Origin: a virus
Reading direction: 5' to 3' (one strand)
Virus record (IMG/VR): IMGVR_UViG_3300012798_000001
Location: 1 to 64,000 of that record
DNA length: 64,000 nt
How positions within the stretch are numbered: position 1 is the first letter of the stretch; every line of letters starts with the position of its first letter. The position numbers and the translations under genes are program-made. The notes under the pieces were generated by a model. That model worked only from the letters and a program-made list of their open reading frames with translations. It made no database searches and was not told the origin of the DNA. Of this stretch, positions 1 through 50,002 are shown piece by piece.

Positions 1-1
1 C

Positions 2-865
2 CCGGCCCGTGAAATCATCCATGACCGGTGGAACACGCTCTACCACCCGCTCTGCGGCACCTCGCCGATCTTCGCTTGCGGCCTGGCGGCGATGCAGGGC
101 CTCAAGATTCAGAACAACTCGGCGTCGTTCTTCGCCAACGGGTCGCAGCCGGGCGGCATTCTGACTGCGCCTGCCGCGATCAGCAACGAGACCGCAGAGC
201 GGCTGAAGGCCCATTGGGACACCAACTACTCCGGCGCCAATGTGGGCAAGGTCGCCGTCCTCGGTGACGGGCTCAAGTATGAGCCGATGGCGATCAATGC
301 GGTCGACTCGCAACTGATCGAGCAGCTCAAGTGGACGGCCGAGGTGGTGTGCGCCACGTTCGGGGTCCCGGCGTACATGGCCGGCATCGGCGCGATGCCG
401 ACCTACAACAACATCGAGGCCCTGAATCAGCAGTATTACTCGCAGTGCCTCCAGATCCACATCGAGAGCATCGAGCTTTGCCTGAACGAGGGGCTCGCCC
501 TGCCGAAGAGCTACGGCACCCGGTTCTCGATTGACGATCTGCTGCGGATGGATACGGCCACCATGGTCAAGGCCGAGGCCGAGGCGGTGGGCGCCGGCAT
601 CAAGTCGCCCAACGAGAGCCGGCTGCGGCTCAACCTGCCGCCGGTCAAGGGCGGCGCCACCCCGTACCTCCAGCAGCAGAATTACTCGCTCGCAGCCCTC
701 GACGATCGCGACCGCGGCGACCCGTTCGCCAAGCCGCAGCCGGCGCCGCAGATCGCGCCGCCGGAGGATACCGAGGAAGACGAGCCGGACGACCAGGACG
801 CGCAGGCCGATGCCGCGCGCTTCGCGGCCCGGCTGGTCCATCGGCTGCTCCAGGCCGCAGCGTGA
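2..865 (+). CDS. phage portal protein, HK97-type (5' end outside window)
   Basis: Frame is open from nt 2 with no upstream stop. The motifs '[23 protein letters not shown]...[19 protein letters not shown]' and the acidic C-tail fit my recollection of Phage_portal C-terminal halves. The stop overlaps the next start (GTGA). Confidence 0.85.
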
Positions 866-2523
866 TCCACGTCGTCCTCGGTCCACCGACCGCAGGGAAA
901 TCGACCTACGTCCGCCAGCACGCCGCCGAGGGCGACGTGATCGTGGACTATGACGCCATCGCGCAGGCGCTCGGCTTTCCCGAGGAGCACGACGCCGATG
1001 GCTCGATCCGCCTCGTCACCCGGTCGGCGCGGGCTGGCGCCATCAACCGGGTCATGGACGGGCTCGACCACGACGCTTGGATCATCGGCACCAATCCGAA
1101 GCCGGCCCGGCTTCGTGCCTACGCCCGAGCTGGCGCGGACTTCACCGTGATCGACCCCGGCCAGGAGGAGTGCCTCCGGCGGGCCAAGCAGCAGGGTCGG
1201 CCGCCGGGCGTCTTCGTGGCAATCAATGACTGGTACGCCGCTCCGCCGGTCCTACCGGGCACAGAAGAAGGGCCAAAGGCGATGCCGAGATCGAGTACCG
1301 CAGTCGCCGACATGGCCGATGCCGTCTATGACGCGGTCAAGGTCTATGTCGGGCGTGAGGTCGGTGGCGTGAAGCCCCAGCTCGTCTCGCTACAGCGCGA
1401 CCTCGACGCCGCAGTGACGATGCTGTCGGTCACGGAGGCGGAGTTGAAGGAGGCCCGCGCCGACGCTGCGACGGCCCGAGCCGAGACCGCGGAGATCCGT
1501 GTCGTCGCCAACGGCCTCGTCGAGCGGTTGGGCGAAGTCATGGAGCGGCTGTCCATCCTGGAGGCCAGGGCGCCCGTTGCCGGCCCTGCGGGGCCCGCTG
1601 GAGCCGATGGCGCCCCAGGGGCGCCCGGTCCCAAGGGCGACCCCGGCGAGGCCGGCCCAGCGGGCCCCCAGGGGCCGCCCGGCCAAGACGGCCTGGCCGG
1701 CCCCCGAGGGGAGCGCGGCGAGGCCGGTCCGCAGGGCCCGGAGGGGCCGGCGGGCCGCGACGGCCAGGACGGGGCGCCTGGGCCTGCTGGCGCGCCTGGA
1801 GAGGCGGGTCCCGCGGGTCCGCAGGGGCCGGAGGGCCCGGCTGGCCAGGACGGGGCCCCTGGGCCCGCTGGCGCGCCCGGCGAGGCCGGTCCGGCTGGTC
1901 CCCAGGGGGAACAAGGGCAGGCAGGGCCGGCGGGCCTGGACGGCGCCCCTGGCGCGCCCGGCGAGGCCGGTCCGGCTGGCGAGGCTGGCCCGGCTGGCCC
2001 CCAGGGCGAGAAGGGCCTGGACGGGGCCCCTGGCCGCGACGGGCGGGATGGCGTCCAAGGGCCGCAGGGCGAGCGTGGCTTGCCCGGTCCCCAGGGCGAG
2101 GCCGGTCCGATCGGCATGCGCGGCGAGCGCGGCGAGAAGGGCGACCCTGGCCGCGACGGTGCCAGCGTCCACAGCATCGACCTCACGACCCCGGATGGCG
2201 GCCGGACGTTCGTCTTCAGCATCGAGGGCGGCGACGAGGTGCTGGTCAACGAGATCCAGACCCGCACGACGATCTGGCAGGGCATCTACGAGGAGGGCCG
2301 GACCTACCAGCCCGGCGACATCGTCACCCTCGGCGGCTCCTGGTGGCACTGCAACCTGGAGACCACCGAACGGCCCGGTGAGGCCAAGGCGGCCTGGAGC
2401 CTCACGGTCAAGCGTGGCCGCGACGGCAAGGACGGCAAGAACGGCGAGCGCGGCGAGCGCGGGCCGCAGGGCCCGGCGGGGCGTGACCTGACGCAGATCG
2501 CTCCGGATGGGAGCAAGTTCTGA
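862..2523 (+). CDS. P-loop kinase-like domain / coiled coil / collagen-like repeat / CBM-like C-terminal fusion protein
   Basis: Single 553-aa ORF. It has a Walker A 'GPPTAGKST' in the first ~130 aa, then a heptad-like Ala/Glu/Leu segment, ~64 uninterrupted G-X-Y triplets, and a globular tail '[27 protein letters not shown]'. A second 8-triplet GXY run follows. Confidence 0.8.
1582..2160 (+). repeat. collagen-like Gly-X-Y coding repeat (~64 triplets)
   Basis: '[37 protein letters not shown]...[13 protein letters not shown]' reads without interruption. Nucleotide units such as ggcgcgcccggcgaggccggtccggctgg recur. Confidence 0.9.
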
Positions 2524-2825
2524 TGGCCACCACCCCGCTCGTGACCCTGGAGATGGTCCGGGATCGCCTCCGCATTGACGCGGTGGACGATCAAGCCGAC
2601 GTGGAGCGGATGATGCGGGAGGGCACCCGCATCGTCCTGGGCTACCTCAAGCCGCAGCCCGATGGCTCGCCCCTCGACCGGGGCTGGACCATCGACACGG
2701 TGCCCGAGCACGTCCAGACCTCGATCCTGCTCGTGATCCGGGCGATCTACGACGGGGAGGATAATCCGCTGTCGCAGGCGGTGATCGACATCCTCCACCG
2801 CGACCGGGACCCGGCGCTCGCATGA
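2523..2825 (+). CDS. head-tail connector (gp6-like / DNA-packaging connector family)
   Basis: 'LVTLEMVRDRLRIDAVDDQADVERMMREGTRIVLGYL' is the typical N-terminal signature. ATGA coupling to the upstream gene and the gene position also fit. Confidence 0.7.
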   Translation: MATTPLVTLEMVRDRLRIDAVDDQADVERMMREGTRIVLGYLKPQPDGSPLDRGWTIDTVPEHVQTSILLVIRAIYDGEDNPLSQAVIDILHRDRDPALA

Positions 2826-3169
2826 GCCGGCAGCCGATGCGGGCCCGGCGGCTCCGCACCCGCCTCACCTTCTACAGCCCGATCGAGAACGAGAGCCCAA
2901 CCGGGAACGTCGAGTTGGGCTGGGAGCCGTTCGTCTCCCGCTGGGTCGAGATGGCCGGCATGCGGGGCAAGGAGCAGCTCCAGGCCGGTCGCCTGGAGGC
3001 CCAGGTCCCGTCGATCGTCCGCATCCGGTGGGACAGCGAGACCGAGCTGATCACGTCGGCGTTCCGGGCCGGCAAGACCGGACCCGACTTCGCGATCGTG
3101 TCGGTCTCGGAGCCGGACCAGATGCGGCGAATGATCGAGCTGCTGCTGCTCACGGGCAAGCCGGGCTAG
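2822..3169 (+). CDS. head closure / head-tail adaptor protein
   Basis: 115 aa. Overlaps the upstream stop. 'LRTRLTFYSP...GNVELGWEPFVSRWVEMAGMRGKE' resembles head-closure (SPP1 gp16/HK97 gp9-like) proteins. Confidence 0.65.
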   Translation: MSRQPMRARRLRTRLTFYSPIENESPTGNVELGWEPFVSRWVEMAGMRGKEQLQAGRLEAQVPSIVRIRWDSETELITSAFRAGKTGPDFAIVSVSEPDQMRRMIELLLLTGKPG

Positions 3170-3172
3170 GCC

Positions 3173-3682
3173 ATGGGCACCTTCAAGGTCGATGGCACTG
3201 CCAAGCTGCAACAGAAGCTTGAGCAGATGCCGGCATCTGTCCGCGAGGCGATGTCGAACGCCATCGCCGATGGCATGGAGGATCTCAACGACTACCAGCG
3301 CCGCCTCGCCCGTCGCGTCTGGCGGACCGGCGAACTGGAGTCGAGCATCGGTTGGGGCTGGGTCACTCCAGGGCAGGACGGCCTGGAGGGGCTCAAGAAG
3401 TTCCGCGCCGTCAACCTCGCGCAGAAGGGCGCCTTCCAATTGGCCGCCAAGGCGTATGCCGGGCGTGTCGACGGGAAAGAAGCCTACTACGCCAAGTTCG
3501 TCGAGTTCGGCACCCGCTACAAGCCGGCGCGGCCGTTCTTCTTCCCGGCCTATCGGCTGAAGAAGCGCGACATCAAGCGGAACATCGCCACCGCCTCGCG
3601 CCGGGCCATCCGCGCAATCGCCAAGGCCGCCGGCACGCCGCCGCCGCGGAAGCCGAGAGCGCCGAAGGGTGCCGCGACATGA
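3173..3682 (+). CDS. HK97 gp10-like tail-component protein
   Basis: 'AYYAKFVEFGTRYKPARPFFFPAY' is the hallmark of the HK97-gp10 family. Confidence 0.7.
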   Translation: MGTFKVDGTAKLQQKLEQMPASVREAMSNAIADGMEDLNDYQRRLARRVWRTGELESSIGWGWVTPGQDGLEGLKKFRAVNLAQKGAFQLAAKAYAGRVDGKEAYYAKFVEFGTRYKPARPFFFPAYRLKKRDIKRNIATASRRAIRAIAKAAGTPPPRKPRAPKGAAT

Positions 3683-4095
3683 GCCCAGACTGCTCCAACG
3701 AGTTGATCGAGGCAATCCGGGCGCGGCTGCTGGCCGACCCGGCTGTCACCGCCATCGTCGGCACCCGCGTATTCGATCGGCCGGACATGGGGGTCGACTT
3801 CCCCTGGCTCCAGATCGGCGAGACCCTGCTTCAGCCGTTCGAGGCGCAGTGCGTCACCGGGACGAGCATCTTCCTGACACTGCATGGCTGGGGTCGCGAT
3901 GGCCATGCGGGCGACGACATGCGGGCGCTCGGCGCCGCGGTCTACGCCAGCCTCCATACGAAGAAGTTCCTGCTGCCTGGGCCCTACGCCCTGCAACTGA
4001 TCGAGCATCAGAACACGCAGGTTCTTCGCGATCCGGACGGCACCACCCGGCACCTCGTGACGGAGTTCCGCGCCGACACGACGGCCGATCTCTGA
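3679..4095 (+). CDS. tail terminator/completion protein (DUF3168-like)
   Basis: Internal ATG at 3679 overlaps the upstream stop (ATGA). 'IRARLLADPAVTAIVGTRVFD...FPWLQIGE' is a DUF3168-type pattern. It lies directly before the major tail gene. Confidence 0.6.
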   Translation: MSPDCSNELIEAIRARLLADPAVTAIVGTRVFDRPDMGVDFPWLQIGETLLQPFEAQCVTGTSIFLTLHGWGRDGHAGDDMRALGAAVYASLHTKKFLLPGPYALQLIEHQNTQVLRDPDGTTRHLVTEFRADTTADL

Positions 4096-4175
4096 TCGGT
4101 CTGCCCGACCCGGCCCTTGGGCAAGGCTGACCGGCCCGCAGCGATGCGCGCCCTTCCCATGATGGAGCCCTTGCC

Positions 4176-4628
4176 ATGGCCCAGCCCGATCTCGCAGGTG
4201 CGAGGGAGCTGCTGCTGTATTTCGAAGATCCCGACGCCCCGAACGCTTGGCTCTTCGCCTGCGGCATCAACTCGCGAGCCCTGAACGGCACCCTCAACAA
4301 CACCGAGACCCCGATCGCCGACTGCGACGACCCCACGGCGCTGCCGGTGCGGCGGGTGACGGCGAACTACTTCGCCGAGGAGATCTCCGGCACCGGCATG
4401 CTCGCCCTGGAGCGCCTGGACGATTTCGAGGCGATCTACCAGTCGGCCGAGTCCCATCGCTGGCGCATCGGCATCATCAACCGCGGCTATTGGCAGGGCC
4501 CGTTCCTGATGACCGCCCGCAACATCGGCGGCGAGCAGGAAGGCTTTGTCACCCTGGAGATCACGCTCTCCAGCGACGGCCCGGTTCCGTACATCGCTGA
4601 TCCCACCTTCCCCGGAGGCACCACGTGA
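4176..4628 (+). CDS. major tail (tube) protein
   Basis: 150 aa, lying between the tail terminator and the chaperone genes. Resembles GTA/TP901-1-type major tail proteins ('TGMLALERLDDFEAIY'). Confidence 0.65.
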   Translation: MAQPDLAGARELLLYFEDPDAPNAWLFACGINSRALNGTLNNTETPIADCDDPTALPVRRVTANYFAEEISGTGMLALERLDDFEAIYQSAESHRWRIGIINRGYWQGPFLMTARNIGGEQEGFVTLEITLSSDGPVPYIADPTFPGGTT

Positions 4629-5053
4629 CTTGGACTGCCCTCATTGAGGTGCCGTTCGCCAACGAACTGCATCGTTTCCGCCTCGGCCTCGGTCAACTGG
4701 AAGATCTGGAGAGCCGGTTCAAGGTCGGCACCATCGGCTGGGTCGAGAAGTTCCGGGCCAACGAGTGGCGCATCGGCGAGATGCGCGCCGTCTTCATCAC
4801 CGCGCTCGTCGGCGGCGGCCAGGACCCGGCGCAGGCGAAGGAAGTCGTCGATCGCTGCATGATGGCGTGGCCGCTGGTCCGGAACGTCGATCTGTTCTGG
4901 AAGATCGTCAACGCAGCGATCCTCGAACCGCCGCCTGGGATGTCCTCGGGAAAAGTTCAGGCGGACGAGGAGGAGGAGATGGCCTCAACCTCGCCCGCCT
5001 CCTCGGTCTCGGAGGAGCCCTCGGCTACACCGCGGAGGAAGTCTGGCGCATGA
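4625..5053 (+). CDS. tail assembly chaperone (gpG-like, zero-frame product)
   Basis: Sits between the tube and tape measure genes. Has an acidic C-terminus and contains an in-phase slippery heptamer. Confidence 0.7.
   Translation: MTWTALIEVPFANELHRFRLGLGQLEDLESRFKVGTIGWVEKFRANEWRIGEMRAVFITALVGGGQDPAQAKEVVDRCMMAWPLVRNVDLFWKIVNAAILEPPPGMSSGKVQADEEEEMASTSPASSVSEEPSATPRRKSGA
4948..4954 (+). promoter_or_regulatory. -1 programmed ribosomal frameshift site G_GGA_AAA
   Basis: GGGAAAA is in the X_XXY_YYZ phase of the 4625 frame (codons TCG GGA AAA). The -1 frame is open from here to 5181. Confidence 0.7.
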
Positions 5054-5181
5054 GCCTGTGGGAGTTGACGGCGCTGGTGGACGGCTTCAACGCCGCGCAT
5101 GGCGGCGAAGACGGCGGTGGCGTCGCTCCGATGACCGTGGAGCGGTTGAAGCAGATCAACCCTCCACGGACGATCCATTGA
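4954..5181 (+). CDS. gpT-like extension of the tail assembly chaperone (-1 frame; G-T fusion 4625..4954/4954..5181)
   Basis: The -1 frame reads 'GKSSGG...LNLARLLGLGGALGYTAEEVWRMSLWELTALVDGFNAAHGG'. This is a GTA rcc01693/TIGR02216-like domain. It begins upstream of the only internal ATG (5050), which argues for a fusion. Confidence 0.65.
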   Translation, partial: SSGGRGGGDGLNLARLLGLGGALGYTAEEVWRMSLWELTALVDGFNAAHGGEDGGGVAPMTVERLKQINPPRTIH

Positions 5182-5548
5182 GCGAAGCCCACAGGGCATC
5201 TGCGCGCTCGTAATCTCGGTTCACCCTGGCCCGATCGCAGTTGAGCACCGTGCGCATCCGGGACGCGGTCATGTAAGTCGATGTGACCGATGCCAGGGTC
5301 TCGGCCGAGAACTTCGGGTCGGCCCGCAGGAGTTTGATCAGGCTCACCATCGGGTCCCCAGGCCGGCGGCTCTTCGTGCAGGCGTAGTCCCCACCCTCGG
5401 CTTCGCCCAATGCCTTCGCGTAGTCGACATAAGCCGCAGGCGCGATGGCCTGGGGCTGGGGCTGGGGCTCGCCGCCCGTGCTGACATAAGCGCCGACTGC
5501 GCCGCCGAGCAGGGCAGTAACGAGCGTGCCGATCAAATAACTAGCCAT
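5156..5548 (-). CDS. small N-terminally membrane-anchored protein (moron)
   Basis: Start 'MASYLIGTLVTALLGGAVGAYV' has GGAG 7 nt upstream. It is the only reverse-strand gene inside the tail module. Its 3' end overlaps the end of the gpT frame. Confidence 0.55.
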   Translation of the reverse strand: MASYLIGTLVTALLGGAVGAYVSTGGEPQPQPQAIAPAAYVDYAKALGEAEGGDYACTKSRRPGDPMVSLIKLLRADPKFSAETLASVTSTYMTASRMRTVLNCDRARVNRDYERADALWASLNGSSVEG

Positions 5549-5601
5549 CGAAATCTCCGGGTTCGAGTCCTTTTGCATTGACATAATCGAAAGTTGCCCG
5601 A

Positions 5602-8220
5602 ATGGCAATGACCGAACTCGAAACGCTGCTAGTCACGGTCGAAGCAGATCTTCGCCGTTACTCCAAGCAGATGCAGCAGCTTGGGCAGATGACCGATGGC
5701 GGCTTCAAGAAAGCCGGCAAGGCCGCCAATGACGGCCTTTCGACCGTCGAGCAACGCGCCAAGCAGGCTTCGGCCCAGGCCCAGAAGGCGCTTCAGGACG
5801 CGCAGCGGTCCTCTCGCCAGTTCGGCCAGACGATCCAGAACGTCGGCTATCAAGTCGGCGACTTTTTCGTCCAGATCGAAAGCGGCCAAGGCTTCCTGAG
5901 AGCCCTCACGCAGCAAGGCACTCAGGTTCTCGGTGCCTTCGGCCCCTGGGGCGCCGTGCTCGGTGCTGCGGCCGGGTCCTTGGCAGTCCTGGCTTCGACG
6001 ATCGGCTTGTTTGGCCCTTCGGTTTCGGAGGCAACCGAAGCGGTCACGAAGCTCAATGACCAGCTCGGGACCACCGACGAACTCACGAAGGCTGCGGCTG
6101 GCGGTTACGACGCGCTGATCCAAAAGGTCAAGGAGTCGACCCGCGCCACCCGTGAGGCGTTCCTCGCCGAGCTGGCGATCGAAGGCCGCGAGGCGGAGAA
6201 GAAGCTCAAGGAGACCGCGGAGACCGTCGCCGGGGCCATGGGCGACATCAACTCTGCGGTCGCCGAGCGGGTGTCCGTCCTCTTCGGCAACGCGGCCGGT
6301 GGCGTGTCGCTGGTCGGGCAGGAGATCAACAAGCTCCAGGACCAGATCGCGAAGGGCGTCGCCTCGCCGGAGGATTTCGAGCGCCTGAACAAGCTCTTGC
6401 GCGATGGCGGCACGGCGAGCGGCGAGGCCACTGCGCGGGCCAAGGAACTCCAGGAGCAGATCGCCAGCCTCATCAAGACGATCGAGTCCGGCAAGGCGAC
6501 CCCGGACCAGTACCTCCAGCTCGCCACCATCCTCCGCGATCTCGCGCAGTCGGCGACGCCAGAGCTGTCGGCGAAACTCCTGGAGCAGGCGGACAACCTC
6601 GCTGTCGCGGCCGGCGCCACCGAGAAGACGAACGACAAGCTCAAGGAGATCAAGGCGACGACCGATGCCGTCACTGGCGCTACGGACGCCGCGACGAAGG
6701 CGACGCTCAACAATGCGGCGGCGATGGATACCGGGACCGGCGCGGCTGGCCGGTATGCCGATGCGATCCGTGGCGCGGTCAAGGCGCTGCAAGAGCAGCA
6801 GCGGGCGTCCGGCTACAATTCCAACCCGACGTTCGAGGTCGGTGGCGGCAACCTGAGCTTTGGCGGGTCGCGTGAGCGCGCTCCGGGCACGATGGGCCCG
6901 ACCTTCGGCAACCTGGACCCGTCATACCTGAAAGACGAGCCCGCGTGGTTCGATAGCGACGCGATCAACGACGCCATCAACCCGGTCAAGGTGCTGGGCC
7001 TCGGCTTCGCCAAGGTCGTCCCGGAAGCGAAGGAGTTCACGGACAGCCTCAAGGCCGCGGAGGCGGCTGCCGTCGATCTGTCCAAGCTGCCGAAGACGTT
7101 CACGATCGGCGGCGGCGGCGTCAACTTCAAGGGCCTCCCCAACCGGACCGACTTGCTCGGCGACCTCTTCGGATCGGAGAGCCCGGCAGATCTGACGACT
7201 AGCGAGTTCTCGCGCTCGATTTATGGGAAGGGCAGGGAAAAGGAGCCCAAGACCCCGAAGGAAAAGAGGACCCCGGAGGACCGGGCCGAAGACCGCACTC
7301 AGGCGCTCAAGGACGAGATCGCCTACAACGAGCAGCTTGCCGCGGTCTATGGCCAGGGCATCGAAGCCCGCAACCGGGTCACCGCCTCGTATGAGGCGCT
7401 CAAGGAGGCCCGGAAGACCGGGCTGGCCGAGGGCTCGGAAGAGTTCCGCCAATTCATCGACACGCAGACGGCCCAGAACGTCGTCAACCTCGGGCTTGAG
7501 CATCGCCTCGACCTGATGAAGCAGGGGCAGGCGCTTACCGAGTCCTTGATGACGGACCAGGAGCGCCAGAACAAGCTGCTCGCCGACTACCAGGAGATGC
7601 TCCGGGCCGGCGCCATCGGCACCGAGATCTACAAGCGCGCCGTCGCCGCCGCCACCAGCGAGAACGACAATCTGGTCGAGGCGATCGGTGGTGTCGGTGA
7701 CGCCATCGAGTCCGGCATCCAGGGCGCGACGAGCTTTGCCGACGCCCTGGCCAAGATCGGCCTCCAGCTCTTGAGCCTCCTGTCCAAGGGGCTGTTCGGC
7801 GCCGGCCCGCTCGGTGGCCTGTTCAATAACATCTTCGGGGTCGCGGCCGGCGGCATCCTCGGCACCCCGGCCAGCGCCATCAACGCGGGCGCGACGGCGC
7901 CGCTGGCGGGGCTCGGCACCGGGTTCCGCCGGTCCTTCGCCGCAGGCGGTTGGGGCGGCCCCGGCCCGGTCCTCGTCGGCGAGAGCGGGCCCGAGATCGC
8001 GAACATGCCGAGCCGCGCCTACATCTCGCCGGCCAATGCCACCCGGCGGATGCTCCAGGGCGGCAACGATAACCGGCCCATCGAGATCAACGTCAACGGC
8101 GCCACCGGCAACGCCGAGTTGAAGCAGATGGTCGCCCTCGGCGTCGATCAAGCGGTCAAGCGATCGGGCCGCAACGTGCCGGGCATCCAGCGCAATTACA
8201 ACCTGCGGTTCGGTCCCTGA
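5602..8220 (+). CDS. tail tape measure protein
   Basis: 872 aa, Ala/Gln/Lys-rich and helical, with a Gly-rich hydrophobic segment near aa 730-790. Position is after the chaperones. Confidence 0.85.
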   Translation: MAMTELETLLVTVEADLRRYSKQMQQLGQMTDGGFKKAGKAANDGLSTVEQRAKQASAQAQKALQDAQRSSRQFGQTIQNVGYQVGDFFVQIESGQGFLRALTQQGTQVLGAFGPWGAVLGAAAGSLAVLASTIGLFGPSVSEATEAVTKLNDQLGTTDELTKAAAGGYDALIQKVKESTRATREAFLAELAIEGREAEKKLKETAETVAGAMGDINSAVAERVSVLFGNAAGGVSLVGQEINKLQDQIAKGVASPEDFERLNKLLRDGGTASGEATARAKELQEQIASLIKTIESGKATPDQYLQLATILRDLAQSATPELSAKLLEQADNLAVAAGATEKTNDKLKEIKATTDAVTGATDAATKATLNNAAAMDTGTGAAGRYADAIRGAVKALQEQQRASGYNSNPTFEVGGGNLSFGGSRERAPGTMGPTFGNLDPSYLKDEPAWFDSDAINDAINPVKVLGLGFAKVVPEAKEFTDSLKAAEAAAVDLSKLPKTFTIGGGGVNFKGLPNRTDLLGDLFGSESPADLTTSEFSRSIYGKGREKEPKTPKEKRTPEDRAEDRTQALKDEIAYNEQLAAVYGQGIEARNRVTASYEALKEARKTGLAEGSEEFRQFIDTQTAQNVVNLGLEHRLDLMKQGQALTESLMTDQERQNKLLADYQEMLRAGAIGTEIYKRAVAAATSENDNLVEAIGGVGDAIESGIQGATSFADALAKIGLQLLSLLSKGLFGAGPLGGLFNNIFGVAAGGILGTPASAINAGATAPLAGLGTGFRRSFAAGGWGGPGPVLVGESGPEIANMPSRAYISPANATRRMLQGGNDNRPIEINVNGATGNAELKQMVALGVDQAVKRSGRNVPGIQRNYNLRFGP

Positions 8221-8879
8221 TGGAGACCTACTCGTTCCCGCCCGCCCTGTGGGCGGCATCGCAGTCGTGGTTCCTCGACGCCAGGACGCGCTCGGGCGGC
8301 GAAACCGTCACCGGGCGCGAGCCGGTGGTCTCGTCCGGTCTGTCCCGGTGGATGTGCAGCCTCACCTTCCCGCTGTACAGCCGCGAGACCATCCTCGCCC
8401 ATGGCGCGCTGCTGGCGCAGTTGGAGGGCCGGGCCAACGCGGTCCGGTTGCCCTTCTGCCCCGGCCCGACCGGCGCCCGTGTGCTGCCGCGGATCAACGG
8501 CGTTCCCTACGCCGGCAGGAACCTGTGGCTTCGGCCTGGCGTGCTTCCGGAGAGCCTCGGCGTCGCCCCCACGGTCCGCGTCACCGCACTTGCCGGCGCG
8601 ACCGAGATCGTCCTGAACATGGGCACGCTCGTGGGGCTCGAACCCGGCGTCATCTTCGGCCTTGGTGAACGGCTGTACATCGTCACCGAGATGCACGGCG
8701 TCTCGGTCACGAACGTCAAGTTCCGGCCGAAGCTGCGCTTTCAGATCAACGCCGGCACCGCCGTCAACTGGAAGAACCCGCGCTGCATCATGCGCCTCCA
8801 GACGGATGACAGCGGCCGGGCCGATATCGCGCTCCGCCGGACCGGCTCGGCGCAGATGGATTTCGTCGAAGTCTGGTGA
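8220..8879 (+). CDS. distal/minor tail protein
   Basis: ATGA-coupled to the tape measure gene. Its position equals lambda gpM / RcGTA g12. Confidence 0.55.
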   Translation: METYSFPPALWAASQSWFLDARTRSGGETVTGREPVVSSGLSRWMCSLTFPLYSRETILAHGALLAQLEGRANAVRLPFCPGPTGARVLPRINGVPYAGRNLWLRPGVLPESLGVAPTVRVTALAGATEIVLNMGTLVGLEPGVIFGLGERLYIVTEMHGVSVTNVKFRPKLRFQINAGTAVNWKNPRCIMRLQTDDSGRADIALRRTGSAQMDFVEVW

Positions 8880-8885
8880 TCCCCG

Positions 8886-9494
8886 ATGCCACTGCTGCCT
8901 CAGACGGCTCTCGCGCAAGCGGAGGGGCTGCACATCGTTGCCTCGCTCTTCGTCACCTTCGCCTTCAAGACCTCGCCGCTGCGGGTCTGGGAAGGTGACG
9001 GCCCGATCGATCGGGAAGGCTTGACGTGGCAGGGCGTGGGCATGCCCTCGGGCCGCTCTGGGAACCCGCTCTATTCGATCGAGGGGCTGGAGCTGTCGAT
9101 GGACGGCTCCGCGCCGCAGCTCAACCTGTCGCTGTCCGGCGTCGACTCCACTGTGGTCGCTGCGGCCCGCGAGGACGTCGCCAACGAGGAGATCGAGGGG
9201 CGCGACCTGACCATCCGGATCGGGTTCTACGACGCCACGCAATACCCCGAGATGATCCCGCTTGACGACCTGATCGTCCTCGGGGTCTGGACGATGCAGA
9301 AGCCGAGCTTCTCGGCAACGGGTGTCACGCTCCGAAACATCACGCTCCCCTGCGAAACGCTGTTCGTGCAGCGCAGCCGGGCGCCGTTCGGCCTGCTGAC
9401 CGATCGGGACCAGCAGCGGCGCTTCCCCGGTGATCTCGCCTGCCAGTTCCCTCCGACCCTCGTTGACAGGGACGTCGCGTGGCCGCGTCGGTGA
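8886..9494 (+). CDS. minor tail protein (gpL / DUF2163-like position)
   Basis: 'PLRVWEGDGPIDREGLTWQGVG' resembles the DUF2163 pattern. Gene order also fits. Confidence 0.5.
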   Translation: MPLLPQTALAQAEGLHIVASLFVTFAFKTSPLRVWEGDGPIDREGLTWQGVGMPSGRSGNPLYSIEGLELSMDGSAPQLNLSLSGVDSTVVAAAREDVANEEIEGRDLTIRIGFYDATQYPEMIPLDDLIVLGVWTMQKPSFSATGVTLRNITLPCETLFVQRSRAPFGLLTDRDQQRRFPGDLACQFPPTLVDRDVAWPRR

Positions 9495-9904
9495 CCGGCT
9501 CGGCACCGCAGATCCTGGATGCCCTCGACCGGCACGTCCGGCTCGCCCGGTCGACGCCGTTCGAGCTGGGCCGGATGGACTGCTCGCTTTGGGTGGCCGA
9601 TTGGGTGTCCATGCGGACCGGGGTCGACCTGGCCGCTGATCTCCGCGGCCGGTACAAGACCCGCGCTGAAGTGCTGCGGCTGATCATCCCGCTCGGCAAC
9701 CTCGTGCGCATTGCCGCCCGGCGGCTGGACTCCATCGGCGCCGCGGTCATCGACCCGGCCCAGGCCCAGCCGGGCGACATCGGCATCGTCGCCACCACGG
9801 ATGGCCCGGCGCTGGCGCTGTTCGCCGATGGCGCTTGGCAGACCAAGACCGGCGACCCGCTGTTCTCGACCCCCACCGCATCCTTTGCCTGGAGATTGCC
9901 GTAG
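9479..9904 (+). CDS. tail-tip associated protein (position of lambda gpK / RcGTA g14)
   Basis: GTG start overlaps the upstream gene. 'GRMDCSLWVADWV...AQPGDIGIV' is reminiscent of NlpC/P60-like Cys peptidase cores. Confidence 0.45.
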   Translation: MAASVTGSAPQILDALDRHVRLARSTPFELGRMDCSLWVADWVSMRTGVDLAADLRGRYKTRAEVLRLIIPLGNLVRIAARRLDSIGAAVIDPAQAQPGDIGIVATTDGPALALFADGAWQTKTGDPLFSTPTASFAWRLP

Positions 9905-12900
9905 ATGCTGGCAGTCCCTCTTGCGATCGGCGCCGCGGCGGCCGGTGCCGGCGCTGCTGCCGGTGTGGCCGCTGCCGCGACGACGGGCCTCTTCCTCGGC
10001 ATTGGCGCCTGGGGCTGGACCGCGGTTGCGGTCGGTCTGAGCGTGCTCGGCACCGTCGCGCAGATGATGCTGTCGCCGACCCCGCCCAAGCCGCAGATGC
10101 AGGAGGGCGACGCCAGCATCAAGCAGGCGATCCCGCCCCGCGTCCGCGTCTACGGCCGGCAGCGGATGGGCGGCGCCTTCCTCTACTACGACAGCACCTC
10201 GGAGGGTGATCTCAAGACCCTGATCTGCCATGCCGCGCATGAGATCGACGGCTACGAGGAGGACTGGCTCAACGACGAGCGGGTCCAGACCGATAGCGAG
10301 GGCCAAGTCACCGACGATCCCTGGTGGCAGGGGAATGACGATCCGATTTTCGGTGACCCCAGCGACGGCCACAGCACCGTTACGATCCTGCATTACCTGG
10401 GCTCGCCGAATCAGACGATCGACAGCTTCGACGAAAAGTGGACTGAGGCGCATCGGGGCCGCGGCCTCAACTGCACCTATGTCAAATATTCGGATCTGAA
10501 GGACGAGGACCAGATCAAGGTCTTCCCGAGCGGGCCGCCGCCCTACCGGGCCGTGCTTCGAGGCGCGAAAGTCTACGACCCGCGCAACGGGGCCATGGCG
10601 CCGGGCAACGAGGCGACCTACGCATACAGCGACAATTCCGCGCTCGTGATCCTCGATTTCCTGACCCGCAAAGAGAATGGCGTGCCGGTCGGGTTCGGCA
10701 TCCCGTGGTCCCGGATCAACCTCGACAGCTTCGCCTTCGCGGCGGCCGTTTGCGATCAGAACATCTCACTCAAGGCTGGCGGCGCCGAGCGCCGCTGGCG
10801 CGCCTGGGGCGCCTACGAGCTGACCGAGGACCGCAAGGACGTCCTCCAGGATCTCCTCGACGGCTGCGGTGGCCGACTCACGCAAGGGCCGGACGGCACC
10901 ATCGGCCTCGCTGTCGGAGCCGGCACGACCAATGGCGCCGCCGCGGTCGGGATGCCGGCCCCCACGGTCGTCATCGACGACGATCAGCTCTATGGCTGGG
11001 ATCTCACGAACGGCAAGACCGGGCTTGAACGCATCAACGAGGTCCGCGCGACCTACGTGTCCGAGATCTGGTCCTGGGCCGAGACCGAGGCCGGCATCCA
11101 GCTCGACCAAGCCGGTATCGATCGCAACGGCATCGAGAGCAGTCAGGTCAAGCTGCGCTTCGTCCCGGCCGAGAGCCAAGCCCAGCGTATCGCCCGCGAG
11201 ATGCTGCGCCGGGGGAGCCCGACCTGGATCGGCAAGATCCGCACCACCATCGCGGGGCTCGATGCCTGGGGCGAGCGGTGGATCAGGCTCCAGATCGCAG
11301 AACTCGAAATCGACGGCATCTTCGAGGTCGGCTCGATCCGCCTCGACCGCGAAACCATGATGGTCGAGATCGACGTCTCCTCCTATGACGGGTGGTGGGA
11401 CTGGACGACGGCGACCGACGAGGCGGACCCGGCGATCCCGCCTCCGGACCTGGACGAGGACGCGAACATCCCGGTCCCGCAGAACGTGTTCGTCGTCATC
11501 GAGAACCGGCTGATCAACGGCAATACCTATGCCGCGGTCGGGGTGATCTCTTGGGACCCCCCGCCACGGCCGGTCTATGTCGGCCGCGCCATCTACCGCC
11601 CGGTCACCACCCCGGAGTCGCCCTGGCAGCCGCTCCCGGTGGCCCAGGAGGCCAATACCGTTAAGACCGACCCGCTGGTGGATGGCCAGGGCTACGAGGC
11701 GCGGGTGCGCTTCATCGCGCCGCGGGGAGCCGGCGGCGATTGGTCCCCGGCGGCGCCGTTCACCGCCATCGCCGATCCGGTGGTGCCCGACGCCCCGATC
11801 CTGACCAGCGGCGAGATCGTCGGCAGCACGGTCGAGCTGGAGACGACCGCCGCCAACAATCCCAACGTCGCGGCGCTCCGCTTCTGGCGCGACACCGATT
11901 CCGTCTTCACGGGCGCGGTCGATATCAGCGGCCCGCTCTACACGGCCCCGAATGCGGTCGCCCACTGGGTCGATACGCCCGGTCCTGGCCGCTTCTATTA
12001 CTGGGCCACGGCCGAGAACTGGAGCGGCCTGCGCAGCCCTCCATCGGGCCCAGCGGGGCCGTTCGACTTCGTCCCGGCTGTCCCGGTCATCACCTCGCCG
12101 ACGAGCCCGTTCGTCACCAACGACAACACGCCGACCTTCAGCGGCACCGGCCAGGACGGCACGACGATCCATCTGTTCGAGGGCCCGACCGACAAGGGCT
12201 CGGCTCCTGTCGTCGGCGGGGTCTGGAGCATCACCTCCTCGACGATGGCGGATGGCACCCGCAACGTCACCGCGCGGGCCTTCGCCGGCCCCCTGGTCAG
12301 CGCTGCCAGCAACATCATCGTCACCACGATCGACACGACCGTCTCGGCGCCGATCATTACCACCAGCTCGCCGCTCACGACGACCGACACCACGCCGGAC
12401 ATCTCGGGCACCTCGGAGCCCAACGCGAGCATCGCCCTGTTCCGCGGCGGCTCGACCCCGGCGGGCTCGACGGTTGCCAATGGTGCCGGGGTCTGGACCG
12501 CGACCCTCTCCGCGCTCGCGGTCGGTCCCTACAGCATCACCGCGACGCAGACCGACAGCGCGGGCAACACCTCCGGCCCGTCCGCGGCGCTGACCCTCAA
12601 CATCCAGCCCGTCGCCCCGACGATCACGACCGGCAGCTTCACGACCTACGACACCACGCCGGTCATCGCTGGCACCTCCACGGCATCGGCCTCGATCAAG
12701 ATCTACGACGATGGAGTTTTGTCGACCACTCTGACGGCGGACGGCTCTGGCAACTGGAGTGGACCGACCGCGGTCCTGTCCAGCGGCGCGAACACCATCA
12801 CCGCCACGCAGACGGTTGCTGGCGTCGAGAGCCCGCAGTCGTCGGGGATCACGGTCACCGTGACCGCGATGGACAGCGCTGCTGCGGCGTACATCGCGGC

Positions 12901-14469: not shown

Positions 14470-16659
14470 ATGTTCACGGCGATCCAAGACAGCGTGATCG
14501 AACTCGTCGCCAGGGGCGAGCGCGGCGTCCCTGGCACGCCCGGCGATTATGACTACGAGACCGCCGATGCGGCGGCCAATCAGTTCATCCCGGCTATCCG
14601 GAAGACGGTCCGGGTCGGCGGCCGGCATACGACGCTCGATCGCGGCTCGGCGATCTATGTCCGCGTTGCGAGCGAGCCGAACCATCCCGGCAAGTTCCAA
14701 TCGCTTGATCTCGGCTGGTGGGAGCTGAACGAGGAGTACCCGACTCTCCGGATGTTCGGGGCGCGCGGCGACGGCGTCACCGACGACACCAACGCGATCC
14801 AAGACGCCTTCGATTACTGCGTGGCCAAGTCGTGCGCGGTCAGCGTGACGAAGGGCAACTACCTCGTCGGCCCGCTCTATTTCAACGGCCGGGCTTGGCG
14901 GGACTCGCCTTCGACCAACGGGGCCCAGCCCAGCGCCCGCGGCCTGATCGGCGAGGGATTGATCGTCTTCGAAGCCCGGTTCGTCGCGAAGACCGGAGCT
15001 TACACGTCCGGACAGGCCGTGATCACTGCGCGCAACCTCACCTTCAAGGTGATCACGGGAATCCACATCGATTGCAACTTCGTCGCCGATGTCGGCCTCG
15101 ATGTGGCGTGGATCGGGGGCACCAGCTCGGGTGACTCCACGGCGCCGGCCTGCGGGAACACGTTCACGAATCTCCTGGTCGAGAACGCCCTTGCCATGGG
15201 CATCAACTTCAATCAGGCGGCGGACTGCCTCATCCAGAACATCACCTATCGCGGCGGCACGCCTCCGGTGGCGTTCTCGCTCAAGCTGCCGGGCGGCGCG
15301 ATCCAGGCCAACAATCTGCGCGCCTATCGCGGTCGCTGGGAGATCGCGTGCCAGAACGCGCAGTTCAGCGATTCCCTGATGCTCGGTGGCCTCCAGTTGA
15401 TCGGCGCGGCCATCAACATGGTCACGATCTCGTCGTGCCAGCTCTCAACCGATCCGCTGACCGGCTATACGGTCTATTCCAGCGCTACCGAGGGTTACGG
15501 CACGCACGAGGTCTTCTTCCATGCCTGTGATTTCCTGGGCGGCGCGGCGCATACTTACTACTTCGCCGGTCGCTGGAACATGGGCGCGAAGTTCATCGGC
15601 ACCCATTTCGAGTTGAAGCCGTCCGATACCATGTTCAACCCGGCCGTCTGGACCCCGGTCGGCGGCCCCGGACGTCCGCCTATCTTCGATTTCGAGCATT
15701 GCTCGTGGCATGGCGGTGGGCCGGGGTTGCCCGCCAGCATCCCGGAAAAGGTTCTCGTCGGGACCTATGCCTGCAAGCGGCCGGACACCACTGTCATCGC
15801 TCGCCGCGACTTCCCGAGCGATATCCAGGTCGGCACCGGCTTGATCGTGGCCGACAAGGCAAACCTGACCGGGAACGGCTTCTTCGCCCGGGGACAGGGC
15901 GTGGCGGCTCCGCCGACCGACGCCTTCTTCGGCCAGGGCTACAACCGCTCCGGCTCCCTGGCAGAGGTCGAGCAGTTCATCCGCGGCCAGATGTGGCGGC
16001 TCACGCAGTATGACGGCGCGACGTTCACCACGCATCTCACGTTCAACGCCGGCTCCGCGAACGGGCTCTACCCCGGCAACGACAACGTCCGGAACCTGGG
16101 CATCGCCTCGAACCGGTGGGCAACGGTCTTCGCCGGCACTTCGGCGATCTCCACGTCGGACGCGCGGCTGAAGACTCCGATCGAGCCACTCACCGAGGCC
16201 GAGATCCAGGCGGGGTTGGCGCTCGGCGACGCGATCGGCTCATTCCACTTCCTCGACGCCATGGAGGACAAGGGCAATGACGCTCGCATCCATTGCGGGC
16301 TCACGGTCCAGGGCGCGATCGAGATCATGGAAACCCATGGGCTCGACCCGATGGCCTATGGCTTCATCTGCTATGACGCATGGCCGGCGGAGGTGATCCA
16401 ATATCCGCCGGTCTACGATGCAGACGGGGTCCTGATGCAGCCGGGCTATACCGAGGTCGTCCGGCAGGCCGGCGACGTCTACAGTTTCCGCGCCGACGAG
16501 TTGCAGTTCTTCGTGATCCGCGCCCTCATGGCCCAGCGGGCCGAACAGGAGGGGAAGATCGGCCTCCACGAGCAACGCATCGGCTCGCAGGAGATCCTTC
16601 TGGCGGCACAAGAAGAGCGCCTCATGAACCTGGAGGCGCTCTTCGGAGAGACGACCTAA
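14470..16659 (+). CDS. tailspike/tail fibre with pectate-lyase-type beta-helix and C-terminal S74 intramolecular chaperone domain
   Basis: 'LRMFGARGDGVTDDTNAIQDAFDYC' is a Pectate_lyase_3 N-cap. The C-terminal 'TSDARLKTPIEPLTEAEIQAGLALGDAIGSFHFLD...RIHCGLTVQ' matches the endosialidase-type chaperone with its S-D-x-R-x-K cleavage motif. Confidence 0.85.
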   Translation: MFTAIQDSVIELVARGERGVPGTPGDYDYETADAAANQFIPAIRKTVRVGGRHTTLDRGSAIYVRVASEPNHPGKFQSLDLGWWELNEEYPTLRMFGARGDGVTDDTNAIQDAFDYCVAKSCAVSVTKGNYLVGPLYFNGRAWRDSPSTNGAQPSARGLIGEGLIVFEARFVAKTGAYTSGQAVITARNLTFKVITGIHIDCNFVADVGLDVAWIGGTSSGDSTAPACGNTFTNLLVENALAMGINFNQAADCLIQNITYRGGTPPVAFSLKLPGGAIQANNLRAYRGRWEIACQNAQFSDSLMLGGLQLIGAAINMVTISSCQLSTDPLTGYTVYSSATEGYGTHEVFFHACDFLGGAAHTYYFAGRWNMGAKFIGTHFELKPSDTMFNPAVWTPVGGPGRPPIFDFEHCSWHGGGPGLPASIPEKVLVGTYACKRPDTTVIARRDFPSDIQVGTGLIVADKANLTGNGFFARGQGVAAPPTDAFFGQGYNRSGSLAEVEQFIRGQMWRLTQYDGATFTTHLTFNAGSANGLYPGNDNVRNLGIASNRWATVFAGTSAISTSDARLKTPIEPLTEAEIQAGLALGDAIGSFHFLDAMEDKGNDARIHCGLTVQGAIEIMETHGLDPMAYGFICYDAWPAEVIQYPPVYDADGVLMQPGYTEVVRQAGDVYSFRADELQFFVIRALMAQRAEQEGKIGLHEQRIGSQEILLAAQEERLMNLEALFGETT

Positions 16660-17741
16660 CTCCGGCTGGGCCGCGACGCTCCCGGCCACAGGTCGCCACC
16701 GCGGCGCACGAGCGTTCCCAGGGGCCGCTCGATGTAATGGTAGGAGACGAAGCCCGCCACGATGCACAGGGGCAGCACAATCCAGACCGCCGGCCCCTGC
16801 TCGTGGCCCAGGGCCATCCATGCTTTGTTGATGATCGCGACCGCGAACACGTGGCACAGGTAGAGGCTATATGAGGCGTCGCCAAGCTTGGCCAGGGCCC
16901 GGCCGGCGGCGCCCGTCACCTCCCGGATGGCGAGGCCGACATAGAACACCATCGCCGCCGGCACGCCCCAGGCGATGGGCCGAATCCAATGAAGCGGCAG
17001 GATGTCCTCCAGCGGCGCTCCTGCGCCGGAGCCGACGAGCCACACGACCGGCACCAGGGCGATGGCGACCGGCAGCGCCGCGCGGCGTGTAACCCACCCT
17101 TGACGATACAGCCAATACATCCCCATCCCGGCCACAAACTCGATGACGACGGGGTGCCCCACGAAGGTCAGGATCGCAGTGTCGCGTCCGGTGATGCTGG
17201 TCAGGATCATCAGGCCGGCGAAGAGGACTGCTATCGCAGCCACCCTGGCCCCGATCTTCAGCCCCAGCACCGCGGCGAAGCACAGGTAGAAGAACATCTC
17301 ATATTGCAGCGTCCAACCGACCGACATCAGCGGCTGCACGGTGCCGCTGACCGGATGGGCGGACGGGATGAAGAACAGTGAGGTCAGGACCAGATCCGGC
17401 GTCACCGTCGTCCAGCGGAGCAGCGATGGGAATGCGGTGGCCCCGGCGGCGAGCGCCAGGGTGAAGAACCAATACAGCGGCACGATCCGCCGGATGCGGC
17501 GGCCTAGGAAGATGCGCGGCGTGTTCTCCCGACCCGTGGCCGGGTCGCTCACGAGCATCATGATGAAGCCGGAGATCACGAAGAAGAGGTCGACTCCGGC
17601 CTCTGGCAGTCGGGCCCAGGAAAAGAAGGCCGTCGCGTCTGGGGCGGTGGTCCCAAACCGGGCATGCACCAGGACCACCGAGACCGCTGCCAGCGCCCGG
17701 AGGATCTGAATTCCCTGAATGTTTTCAGGCTTTTGTGCCAT
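16656..17741 (-). CDS. acyltransferase family 3 membrane protein (O-antigen/EPS O-acetylase type)
   Basis: 'IQGIQILRALAAVSVVLVHA...LFFVISGFIM' with about 10 hydrophobic segments. Convergent with the tailspike gene, with a 4-nt overlap. Confidence 0.85.
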   Translation of the reverse strand: MAQKPENIQGIQILRALAAVSVVLVHARFGTTAPDATAFFSWARLPEAGVDLFFVISGFIMMLVSDPATGRENTPRIFLGRRIRRIVPLYWFFTLALAAGATAFPSLLRWTTVTPDLVLTSLFFIPSAHPVSGTVQPLMSVGWTLQYEMFFYLCFAAVLGLKIGARVAAIAVLFAGLMILTSITGRDTAILTFVGHPVVIEFVAGMGMYWLYRQGWVTRRAALPVAIALVPVVWLVGSGAGAPLEDILPLHWIRPIAWGVPAAMVFYVGLAIREVTGAAGRALAKLGDASYSLYLCHVFAVAIINKAWMALGHEQGPAVWIVLPLCIVAGFVSYHYIERPLGTLVRRGGDLWPGASRPSRS

Positions 17742-18846: not shown

Positions 18847-19572
18847 ATGATCTCAGCAGATCTGTTGCGCTCCCTGTGCCCGCAGGGGGCGGAGCCGGTT
18901 ATTGCCGGCCTGGCGCGATCGTTCGATCTGCTGCTGCCGGCCTTTACGCTCTCGACCCCGCTACGCCAGGCGCACTTCGTGGCCCAGGCCGCGGTCGAGA
19001 CGGCCTATTTCCGGACCCTCCGGGAGTATGGCACCGGCCAGCGATATGCCCCCTATATCGGCCGCGGGCCGGGGCAGCTCACGTGGGAGTCCAACTACGT
19101 TGATATGGGCCGCCGGCTGGGCTTGCCGCTCAAGGCCCAGCCCCAGCTCGTCGAGGACCCGGCGCTCGGGACCCTGGTCTTCCTGATGTACTGGATGGAC
19201 CACGGGCTCAACCGCTACGCCGACGAGGACGACGGCCGGGCCATCTCCCGCGCCATCAACCGCGGCTCGGCCGCGTCGGACAAGCCGGCCAATGCCGAGG
19301 CCGAGCGCCTGGACATGGTGGCCAAAGCGAAGGTGCTGCTGGGGGCCGTTGGAGCGCCTGCCACGAGTCCGGCGCGCTCAGTGAGCGCCCTGCAAGCTGC
19401 TCTTAATCGACTAGGAGCTGATCCGAAGCTCGACGTGGACGGGCGCGCTGGCCCTGCCACCGAAAGGGCGGTGCGCGCTTTTCAGAGCGCCTGCGGCTTG
19501 GCGGTGGACGGCACGGCCGGACCGCTGACCTGGACGGCCATCGACGACGCCCTGGCTGAACTCGACGCCTAG
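18847..19572 (+). CDS. endolysin: GH19-like muramidase/chitinase domain + PG_binding_1 domain
   Basis: 'AHFVAQAAVETAYFRTLREYG...YIGRGPGQLTWESNY' is a GH19-like core. The C-terminal 'LQAALNRLGADPKLDVDGRAGPATERAVRAFQSACGLAVDGTAGPLTW' is a peptidoglycan-binding repeat. Confidence 0.85.
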   Translation: MISADLLRSLCPQGAEPVIAGLARSFDLLLPAFTLSTPLRQAHFVAQAAVETAYFRTLREYGTGQRYAPYIGRGPGQLTWESNYVDMGRRLGLPLKAQPQLVEDPALGTLVFLMYWMDHGLNRYADEDDGRAISRAINRGSAASDKPANAEAERLDMVAKAKVLLGAVGAPATSPARSVSALQAALNRLGADPKLDVDGRAGPATERAVRAFQSACGLAVDGTAGPLTWTAIDDALAELDA

Positions 19573-32840: not shown

Positions 32841-32917
<77 letters not shown>

Positions 32918-34570: not shown

Positions 34571-34644
34571 TGGATCGGGCGGCTGGATTCGAACCAACGT
34601 TGCAGGGACCAAAGCCCCGTGTCCTACCGCTAGACGACGCCCGA
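34571..34644 (-). tRNA. tRNA-Gln(UUG), CCA encoded
   Basis: Hand-folded. Has U1-A72, D arm GTCT..GGAC, anticodon arm CGGGG-CTTTGGT-CCCTG and T arm GTTGG-TTCGAAT-CCAGC. Confidence 0.8.
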
Positions 34645-34745: not shown

Positions 34746-34834
34746 TGGCGGAAGGGGGGAGGATCGAACTCCCGCGAGGACTGGCCCCGGCTACGGTCTA
34801 GCAAACCGACGCATTACCGCTCTGCCACCCTTCC
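34746..34834 (-). tRNA. tRNA-Ser(GCU), CCA encoded
   Basis: Acceptor GGAAGGG/CCCTTCC, anticodon loop TTGCTAG, variable arm CGGGG-CCAGT-CCTCG, T arm GGGAG-TTCGATC-CTCCC. Confidence 0.75.
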
Positions 34835-45531: not shown

Positions 45532-45746
45532 CGCCCGACCTCCAAGAGCCGGGTGATCGTGAAGCCGCGCCGCTCCAGGCACTCGATCGCGTAGCTGGCC
45601 TCCGCGAGATATCCGGTATAGGTGCCGTCCGCGTCGTCGAGGGCGATGTCCGCCTTGCAGGCGCGGAACCGCTCGCCCTTGCCGTCGATGATGGCCCAGA
45701 CCTCGGCCAGGGCTTCGGACGCCTCGCGGCGCGAAGTGCCGGTCAC
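45528..45746 (-). CDS. hypothetical protein
   Basis: 72-aa ORF, coupled. Confidence 0.5.
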   Translation of the reverse strand: MTGTSRREASEALAEVWAIIDGKGERFRACKADIALDDADGTYTGYLAEASYAIECLERRGFTITRLLEVGR

Positions 45747-50000: not shown

Positions 50001-50002
50001 CG

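Follow-up and report, generated by a model that had tools for sequence, protein, structure and literature searches.

The sequence analysed here is a stretch of 64,000 nucleotides covering positions 1 to 64,000 of the IMG/VR virus record IMGVR_UViG_3300012798_000001. This whole stretch is referred to as the window, and the subject of the analysis is the head-tail gene cluster at its left edge, in which no capsid gene is seen. An earlier note on this DNA had described a portal gene ending at position 865, a single gene of 553 amino acids (aa) directly after it and a connector gene from 2523. These coordinates are correct, and the gene calls agree with Pfam and PHROGs matches, the gp6-like identity of the connector being assigned from weak PHROGs matches.

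The first open reading frame (ORF) of the window, at positions 2-865 on the plus strand, encodes the C-terminal ~287 residues of an HK97-family portal protein. Its match to PF04860 (5e-51) extends over positions 92-865 and covers profile positions 143-321 of 321. The reading frame is already open at base 2 and extends leftwards beyond the window, and the fragment aligns to residues 174-391 of the portal of a Microvirga locus (L022), where the full-length protein has ~450-460 residues. The window edge thus cuts the portal gene at about residue 174. The portal stop codon TGA occupies positions 863-865 and a GTG codon at 862 opens the 553-aa ORF (862-2523, plus strand), so that stop and start overlap in the sequence GTGA. 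This post-portal gene combines a kinase-like domain, a collagen-like fibre and a C-terminal domain resembling carbohydrate-binding modules of families 5 and 12 (CBM5/12). Its stop codon overlaps by 1 nucleotide (nt) the start of a 100-aa ORF at 2523-2825 (plus strand), a probable head-tail adaptor of the gp6/Ad1-like type (phrog_442, 5e-4; phrog_40, 1e-3). This ORF is 91% and 83% identical to the ORFs at the same position in two IMG/VR contigs, L061 and L062.

The genes that follow, all on the plus strand, encode a head completion or head closure protein (Phage_HCP; 2822-3169; PF05521 at 2e-16, phrog_25), an HK97 gp10-like neck or tail completion protein (3173-3682; PF04883, phrog_5), a gp17-like tail terminator or tail completion protein (3679-4095; PF11367 at 1e-24, phrog_176), the major tail tube protein (4176-4628; PF06199, phrog_1407), a tail assembly chaperone similar to gp10 of gene transfer agents (GTAs; 4625-5053; PF11836) and the tape measure protein (5602-8220; phrog_8892 and a weak match to PF06791). 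From the adaptor through head closure, gp10-like protein and tail terminator to the tail tube, this is the order found in Enterobacteria phage BP-4795. The feature typical of HK97 and of the Rhodobacter capsulatus gene transfer agent (RcGTA), a protease and a major capsid protein (MCP) gene between portal and adaptor, is absent, and the 553-aa gene alone occupies that slot.

The earlier note had also seen nothing in the window resembling an HK97-fold capsid or an S78/S49 protease, and dedicated searches bear this out. A tblastn search of the 64-kb window with the protease, capsid and large terminase subunit (TerL) proteins of the lineage itself gives no match. Profile hidden Markov models built from relatives (127 MCP, 100 protease and 69 TerL sequences) find no match below E=3 among all six-frame window ORFs of at least 50 aa. 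Pfam and PHROGs scans of the larger window ORFs return tail, lysis, integration and replication functions only, with no capsid, protease or terminase. Since the small terminase subunit (TerS) and TerL are missing from the window as well, the absence goes beyond the capsid pair and comprises the whole packaging and capsid block.

Capsid genes in related loci

Relatives of the portal gene were collected from one genome per GTDB species (55 loci), from IMG/VR (80 loci) and from metagenomes. The position of the capsid gene was counted in the 109 related GTDB and IMG/VR loci that have at least 2.5 kb of sequence upstream of the portal. In 107 of these an MCP homolog lies no more than 4 kb upstream of the portal. 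Within the first set, of 54 loci, protease and MCP form one ORF in at least 18 and neighbouring ORFs in most others, and the capsid ORF typically ends 200-400 bp ahead of the portal. Pfam detects PF04586 and PF05065 together in single ORFs of 655-681 aa in four loci (L022, L004, L062 and L061). The two Microvirga loci among them, L022 and L004, have TerL, a single ORF of 655 or 681 aa (Peptidase_S78 plus Phage_capsid) and then the portal. Fusions of this kind also have a curated NCBIfam model, 'prohead protease/major capsid protein fusion protein'.

The closest relatives found are L061 (IMG/VR UViG_3300010367_000168, 68.4 kb) and L062 (IMG/VR UViG_3300019889_000008, 73.8 kb), both uncultivated and unannotated contigs. 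L061 has TerL at 1629-3218, the fusion at 3332-5299 (655 aa), the portal at 7761-9143, a post-portal gene at 9136-10242 and the adaptor from 10242. L062 begins with a gene for a ParB_N-methylase (276-1637), followed by TerS (2303-2785), TerL (2778-4367), the fusion (4546-6516, 656 aa), the portal (9019-10404), the post-portal gene (10401-12047) and the adaptor from 12047. The ParB_N-methylase gene is not seen in L061. The window portal is 86% identical to that of L061, 79% to that of L062 and 77% to that of a third close relative, L058, in which the C-terminus of the MCP lies at the contig edge, 303 bp before the portal. The head closure protein of L061 is 95% identical to that of the window, and the tail tube proteins of L061 and L062 are 88% and 87% identical to the window's.

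Between capsid fusion and portal, both L062 (6519-9016) and L061 (5305-7757) carry three genes, namely a 182-aa ORF, a protein of ~546 aa with weak matches to glycosyltransferase family 2 (GT2) and galactosyltransferases, and a small ORF. Judged from these matches, the putative glycosyltransferase could modify a virion protein.

The same arrangement is present in two deposited phages. In BP-4795 (Marienburgvirus, NC_004813) and related Shiga toxin Stx1/Stx2c prophages, the late operon ORF54-ORF67 encodes TerS (ORF54), TerL (ORF55), a 645-aa MCP with an N-terminal HK97-protease-like region (ORF56), a 73-aa ORF, the portal (ORF58), the 461-aa ORF59, Ad1 (ORF60), head closure, gp10-like protein, tail terminator and tail. 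ORF60, annotated as Ad1, holds the position of the window's 100-aa adaptor gene. The window shares with this operon a PF04860 portal (53% identical), a post-portal gene overlapping the portal stop and the downstream gene order, and the C-terminus of ORF59 shares 51% identity with the conserved C-terminal domain of the 553-aa protein. BP-4795 differs in its enterobacterial host and low GC content, in the absence of collagen and kinase domains from ORF59 and in tail genes that are only distantly related. Rhizobium phage RHph_X2_26 (MW960037, 68.5 kb), of similar size class, has the best portal match among deposited phages (58%). Its genes run from TerL through a 656-aa MCP, two inserted genes and the portal to a 473-aa post-portal gene and the head-tail joining proteins. 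The 473-aa protein has the same C-terminal domain as the 553-aa protein, from which it differs in having only a short collagen-like stretch and no kinase domain. An SGNH hydrolase gene lies between MCP and portal in the slot taken by the glycosyltransferase gene in L061 and L062. A search of the literature for this gene order or for the BP-4795 head genes returned nothing specific.

The canonical HK97/RcGTA head module shares with the window the portal family, the set of adaptor, head closure, gp10-like and terminator proteins and the GTA-like tail families, and the capsid of the window's relatives is likewise of the HK97 fold with an S78 protease. The relatives differ in having protease and MCP before the portal, often fused, and an extra fibre gene between portal and adaptor. 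The earlier note had regarded the order portal, protease, MCP, connector as nearly invariant; this premise fails for the lineage, because in BP-4795, RHph_X2_26 and the 107 loci counted above the capsid gene precedes the portal.

The segment beyond the window edges

The right end of the window indicates where the missing genes would lie. A conserved gene at 62020-62490 (plus strand) has tblastn matches in 25 related loci, all upstream of TerL, and its homologs in relatives lie 0.5-3 kb upstream of TerL. At 63477-64000 (plus strand) the right edge cuts a gene of which the N-terminal part, a ParB_N domain (PF02195), is visible. This fragment is 63% identical to positions 240-704 of L062, and in 12 loci a homolog is found at a distance of 1.4-2.5 kb upstream of TerL. 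The L062 ortholog is a 453-aa protein with ParB_N and N6_N4_Mtase domains (276-1637), encoded just before TerS and TerL. Expressed in L062 coordinates, window base 63998 falls at about position 704 and window base 2 at position 9541, leaving a gap of 8,836 bp. Because the last two plus-strand genes of the window match the pre-terminase genes of its relatives, about 8.8 kb containing TerS, TerL, the protease-capsid gene and the portal N-terminus would be missing from view. Adding ~8.8 kb to 64,000 gives an implied genome of ~72.8 kb, compared with 73,826 bp for L062.

The window is thus best pictured as 64 kb of a temperate siphophage genome of ~73 kb, from a circular or permuted record. It starts inside the portal gene and ends inside the ParB-methylase gene that precedes the terminase, with the ~8.8 kb bearing the terminase, protease-capsid and portal N-terminal sequences out of view. 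In the late order of the lineage, TerS and TerL are followed by the S78 protease and the HK97-fold MCP (often one fusion of ~650 aa), a few small or accessory genes and the portal, and after these by the post-portal fibre gene, head-tail adaptor, head closure, neck, tail terminator and tail. To judge from the relatives, the head would be built in the usual HK97 way, from a capsid protein carrying its own N-terminal protease and a scaffold-like linker, both of which would be removed by cleavage after assembly.

It is accordingly very probable that the phage has its capsid and protease genes immediately ahead of the window start and that their absence reflects the position of the window edge together with a mistaken assumption on gene order. 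Of the possibilities raised in the earlier note, a relocated capsid module applies in the trivial sense that the relatives' capsid gene lies between TerL and portal, outside the window. That note had also named a protease-MCP pair immediately upstream of the portal as the observation that would undo its reading. Such a pair is found in the close relatives L061, L062 and L058, from which the upstream content of the source genome is judged.

Several observations weigh against an upstream capsid block. The sequence upstream of window base 1 was not recovered from the collections searched. The exact 48-mer formed by window bases 1-48 has no match in the metagenome or viral collections, and a megablast search with bases 1-6000 against the plasmid collection finds none. 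The best portal match is 68% identical among GTDB genomes, 86% in IMG/VR and 86% in metagenomes. The three near-identical metagenome contigs are only 1.2-3.5 kb long, and two of them, L001 (3,531 bp) and L057 (1,238 bp), start inside the window. An exact-sequence look-up finds an identical 553-aa protein on L001, and L057, which starts at window base 66, carries a portal fragment (P0001) that is 99% identical; the third contig, of 1,460 bp, carries a 135-aa fragment (P0133) that matches the 553-aa protein's C-terminal domain at 99% identity. Finally, in 2 of the 109 loci, L029 and L045, nothing homologous to the capsid, protease or TerL proteins of the lineage is found up to 10 kb from the portal. 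These are loci of 18-20 kb in all, L029 from a metagenome-assembled genome (MAG) of the Burkholderiaceae and L045 from Burkholderia anthina. They may be remnants of prophages, or mosaics in which the head module is a different one, and they show that the module is occasionally lost or replaced.

These two loci, and the lack of MCP, protease, TerS and TerL genes throughout the 64 kb, are what could be expected if the element had truly lost the block and were a defective prophage or a helper-dependent element that borrows its heads from another phage. Were this so, it would be a portal-plus-tail element needing another phage for heads and packaging, the mirror image of the known satellites that encode capsids and lack tails. 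This explanation is improbable. The portal gene is cut by the window edge and not by a mutation, the window ends match the genes that flank the packaging-capsid block on either side in relatives, and the implied size of the genome fits L062. The other modules look intact, with tight translational coupling, and the block is kept in 107 of the 109 relatives. The defective or helper-dependent element proposed in the earlier note lacks positive support.

A dispersed arrangement, in which the capsid genes lie elsewhere in the host genome as in RcGTA, is less probable again. It could appeal to the tail genes, which belong to GTA-like Pfam families (PF11836 GTA-gp10, Phage-tail_3 and DUF6950), and to the known use of several loci by RcGTA (PMC5026251). 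The window also contains integrase, recombinase, replication and lysis genes and tRNAs, which indicate an autonomous temperate phage and not a GTA, and its close relatives are all compact viral contigs of 68-74 kb with the capsid gene beside the portal. Least credible of all, with a likelihood close to nil, is the proposal that the 553-aa protein itself builds the capsid, unrecognised, in place of an HK97-fold MCP. The gene does sit in the canonical slot of protease and MCP. Against this stand its make-up from a 130-aa kinase fold, a ~110-aa helical stalk, 195 aa of collagen and a CBM5/12-like domain of ~85 aa, which contradicts the earlier note's suggestion of an unrecognised capsid solution, and the coexistence of its orthologs with a normal MCP in more than 100 loci. 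Ortholog lengths moreover vary between 150 and 750 aa, and unrelated repeats take the place of the stalk, which is unlike the behaviour of a shell protein.

The post-portal gene

The 553-aa gene is an accessory, translationally coupled fibre gene and not a capsid gene, since its kinase, stalk, collagen and CBM-like domains leave no room for an HK97 fold. The first ~130 residues (862-1251, plus strand) form a P-loop domain with a polynucleotide-kinase-like fold and a ten-residue Walker A stretch. In Pfam the domain matches AAA_33 weakly, with 22.5 bits where the cut-off is 27, and in PHROGs it matches phrog_4581, 9644 and 2071. Across 13 P-loop homologs the residues G7, G12-K13-S14-T15, D29, D31, H43, R57, R107 and R113 are invariant, as is the Walker A motif GPPTAGKST. 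An AlphaFold2 model of the domain has a predicted local distance difference test (pLDDT) score of 90. Its top Foldseek matches in the PDB are polynucleotide kinases (4gp7, 1ltq and 4xrp, template modelling (TM) scores 0.58-0.63), corresponding to Clostridium thermocellum Pnkp, T4 Pnk and Pnkp1; other small P-loop kinases (adenylate, shikimate and gluconate) fit the model nearly as well. With the T4 Pnk kinase domain and C. thermocellum Pnkp the fold match has a Foldseek probability of 1.0, and the window domain shares with them the Walker A motif, a conserved Asp-x-Asp and the lid arginines. It differs from them in that the identity is 13-21%, no phosphatase or ligase partner is present and the domain is fused to a structural fibre.

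Residues ~131-240 (1252-1581, plus strand) form a linker and helical stalk, delimited by comparison with the N-termini of L061, L058, L004 and L022. From Met151 onward the stalk resembles the N-termini of ordinary members of the post-portal family, and it is probably a coiled coil. It is followed by 65 uninterrupted Gly-X-Y triplets at residues 241-435 (1582-2166, plus strand), defined by triplet count and by the PF01391 Collagen match (3e-36; 123 bits against a cut-off of 27). Three ORFs of 313-330 aa that overlie the collagen region, at 1344-2285 and 1390-2349 on the minus strand and 1499-2491 on the plus strand, were considered as genes and rejected, since repeats of GC-rich Gly-X-Y codons produce such frames as a side effect.

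The CBM5/12-like C-terminal domain occupies residues 436-518 (2167-2415, plus strand) and is defined as a family signature by an alignment of 54 members, BP-4795 ORF59 among them, with the motif Y-x-x-G-D-x-V-T-x-G-G-S-x-W. PF02839 (CBM_5_12) matches 44 of the 54 members at E<=0.1; the window protein itself scores 16.9-19.9 bits, under the Pfam cut-off of 26.2. Searched against the PDB, the family profile finds the chitin-binding module of chitinase 60 (9fbo, 2e-5) and Anabaena All3316 (7b5h, 5e-5). PDB sequence searches with the single N- or C-terminal domain return nothing or marginal matches, and a word-indexed homolog search with the C-terminal domain finds 2 proteins. The AlphaFold2 model of this domain failed (pLDDT 38 from a 3-sequence alignment), so the CBM assignment is a putative one made from sequence profiles. 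A second collagen run of 8 triplets at residues 519-542 (2416-2487, plus strand) is kept in a subset of the family. An assembly error that merged two separate genes into this ORF was also considered, and rejected because the fusion recurs in independent assemblies, in full in L001 and for its 5' part in L057, and also in L062, whose kinase part shows 73% identity.

In 108 loci the portal gene is followed by one whose product has the CBM5/12-like C-terminal domain. Among them are 45 in which portal stop and fibre start share 1, 4 or 8 nt, with longer overlaps in others, and collagen repeats are present in 88 of the 108 genes. Lengths vary from ~150 to 750 aa, and some stalks consist of other repeats, such as the 54-aa units of BP-4795 ORF59 and the PEPEPLPDI-type repeats of Erwinia and Pantoea. 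The L062 ortholog (548 aa) has the same kinase-collagen-CBM architecture, and the L061 gene (368 aa) is without the kinase domain. In two genomes portal and fibre form one in-frame ORF joined by a Pro/Asp-rich linker, namely L046 (85-2274, 729 aa, an Acidobacteria MAG) and L049 (9398-13132, ~1,243 codons, a Pantoea genome). These fusions suggest that the N-terminus of the fibre adjoins the C-terminus of the portal in the virion. Given the coupling of the gene to the portal gene and its fusion in two genomes, the attachment site may be the portal vertex.

Two members of this family are annotated as 'portal protein' in public records, BP-4795 ORF59 (L059 7756-9141) and QWY83564 of RHph_X2_26 (L060 7779-9200). 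Both are post-portal fibre genes and not portals, and they share only the CBM5/12-like C-terminal domain. The label was probably carried over via phrog_1289, which is itself annotated 'portal protein'.

The gene for SPP1 gp12 lies between the scaffold and MCP genes. This protein and the phi29 head fibre gp8.5 are non-essential trimeric fibres of the head module that are thought to aid adhesion to carbohydrates, and gp12 is predicted to be collagen-like and binds the centres of capsid hexamers (PMC7602432). The fibre of the window would be comparable to these in role, the likeness being one of analogy. The best guess, made with moderate confidence, is an accessory trimeric fibre with a glycan-binding tip, placed at the portal vertex or on the head; trimerisation is probable from the repeat architecture. 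Tethering on the inner side of the portal is also possible, given the natural fusions with the portal.

Fusion of the kinase domain to the fibre is found only in the sub-lineage of the window, comprising the window, L001 and L062. Elsewhere its homologs are free-standing genes of 132-160 aa. In three phages of canonical gene order the kinase gene directly follows the portal gene, with the S78 protease and capsid genes coming next (L141, 6001-6414; L142, 6001-6399; L143, 5951-6349), and in L144 a homolog lies ~4 kb upstream of the portal beside an HNH gene. From the free-standing homologs in head modules, the kinase gene would seem to recur in that module and to have been joined to the fibre gene in this sub-lineage. 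The post-portal gene may encode a fibre at the portal vertex by which an active polynucleotide-kinase-like enzyme is brought into the virion or to its surface. A kinase-carrying fibre is both more probable and less striking than loss of the TerL-protease-capsid block.

Other window genes and wider bearing

The rest of the window has the content of a temperate phage. The gene at 14470-16659 (plus strand) encodes a 729-aa tailspike-like protein whose sequence includes a pectate-lyase-like region and, at the C-terminus, an S74 intramolecular chaperone domain. Convergent with it on the minus strand is an acyltransferase gene (Acyl_transf_3, 16656-17741), whose product is likely a surface-polysaccharide acetylase and possibly serves in lysogenic conversion. 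An endolysin gene is found at 18847-19572. Three tRNA genes on the minus strand, Met-CAT (32841-32917), Gln-TTG (34571-34644) and Ser-GCT (34746-34834), sit in mid-genome amid small ORFs. The integrase (40018-41133) and ERF recombinase (45743-46627) genes are also on the minus strand, and a replication initiator and a primase-helicase are encoded at 49634-50773 and 50904-52457.

The gene arrangement of the lineage is already on record in BP-4795 and RHph_X2_26; what stands out, and mildly so, is the kinase-collagen-CBM fusion alone. The analysis has two by-products. The post-portal gene of the lineage is an uncharacterised fibre with a carbohydrate-binding-like tip that is publicly labelled 'portal protein', and a small polynucleotide-kinase-like gene recurs right after the portals of several phage groups and is here fused to the fibre. 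Neither of these alters the understanding of phage heads. The main lesson is one of caution, in that not every phage has the order portal, protease, capsid, connector, and a window cut within a portal gene can mimic a phage without a capsid. A large lineage of proteobacterial phages, including the Shiga-toxin phage BP-4795 and hundreds of uncultivated contigs, has its protease and capsid gene, often fused, before the portal.

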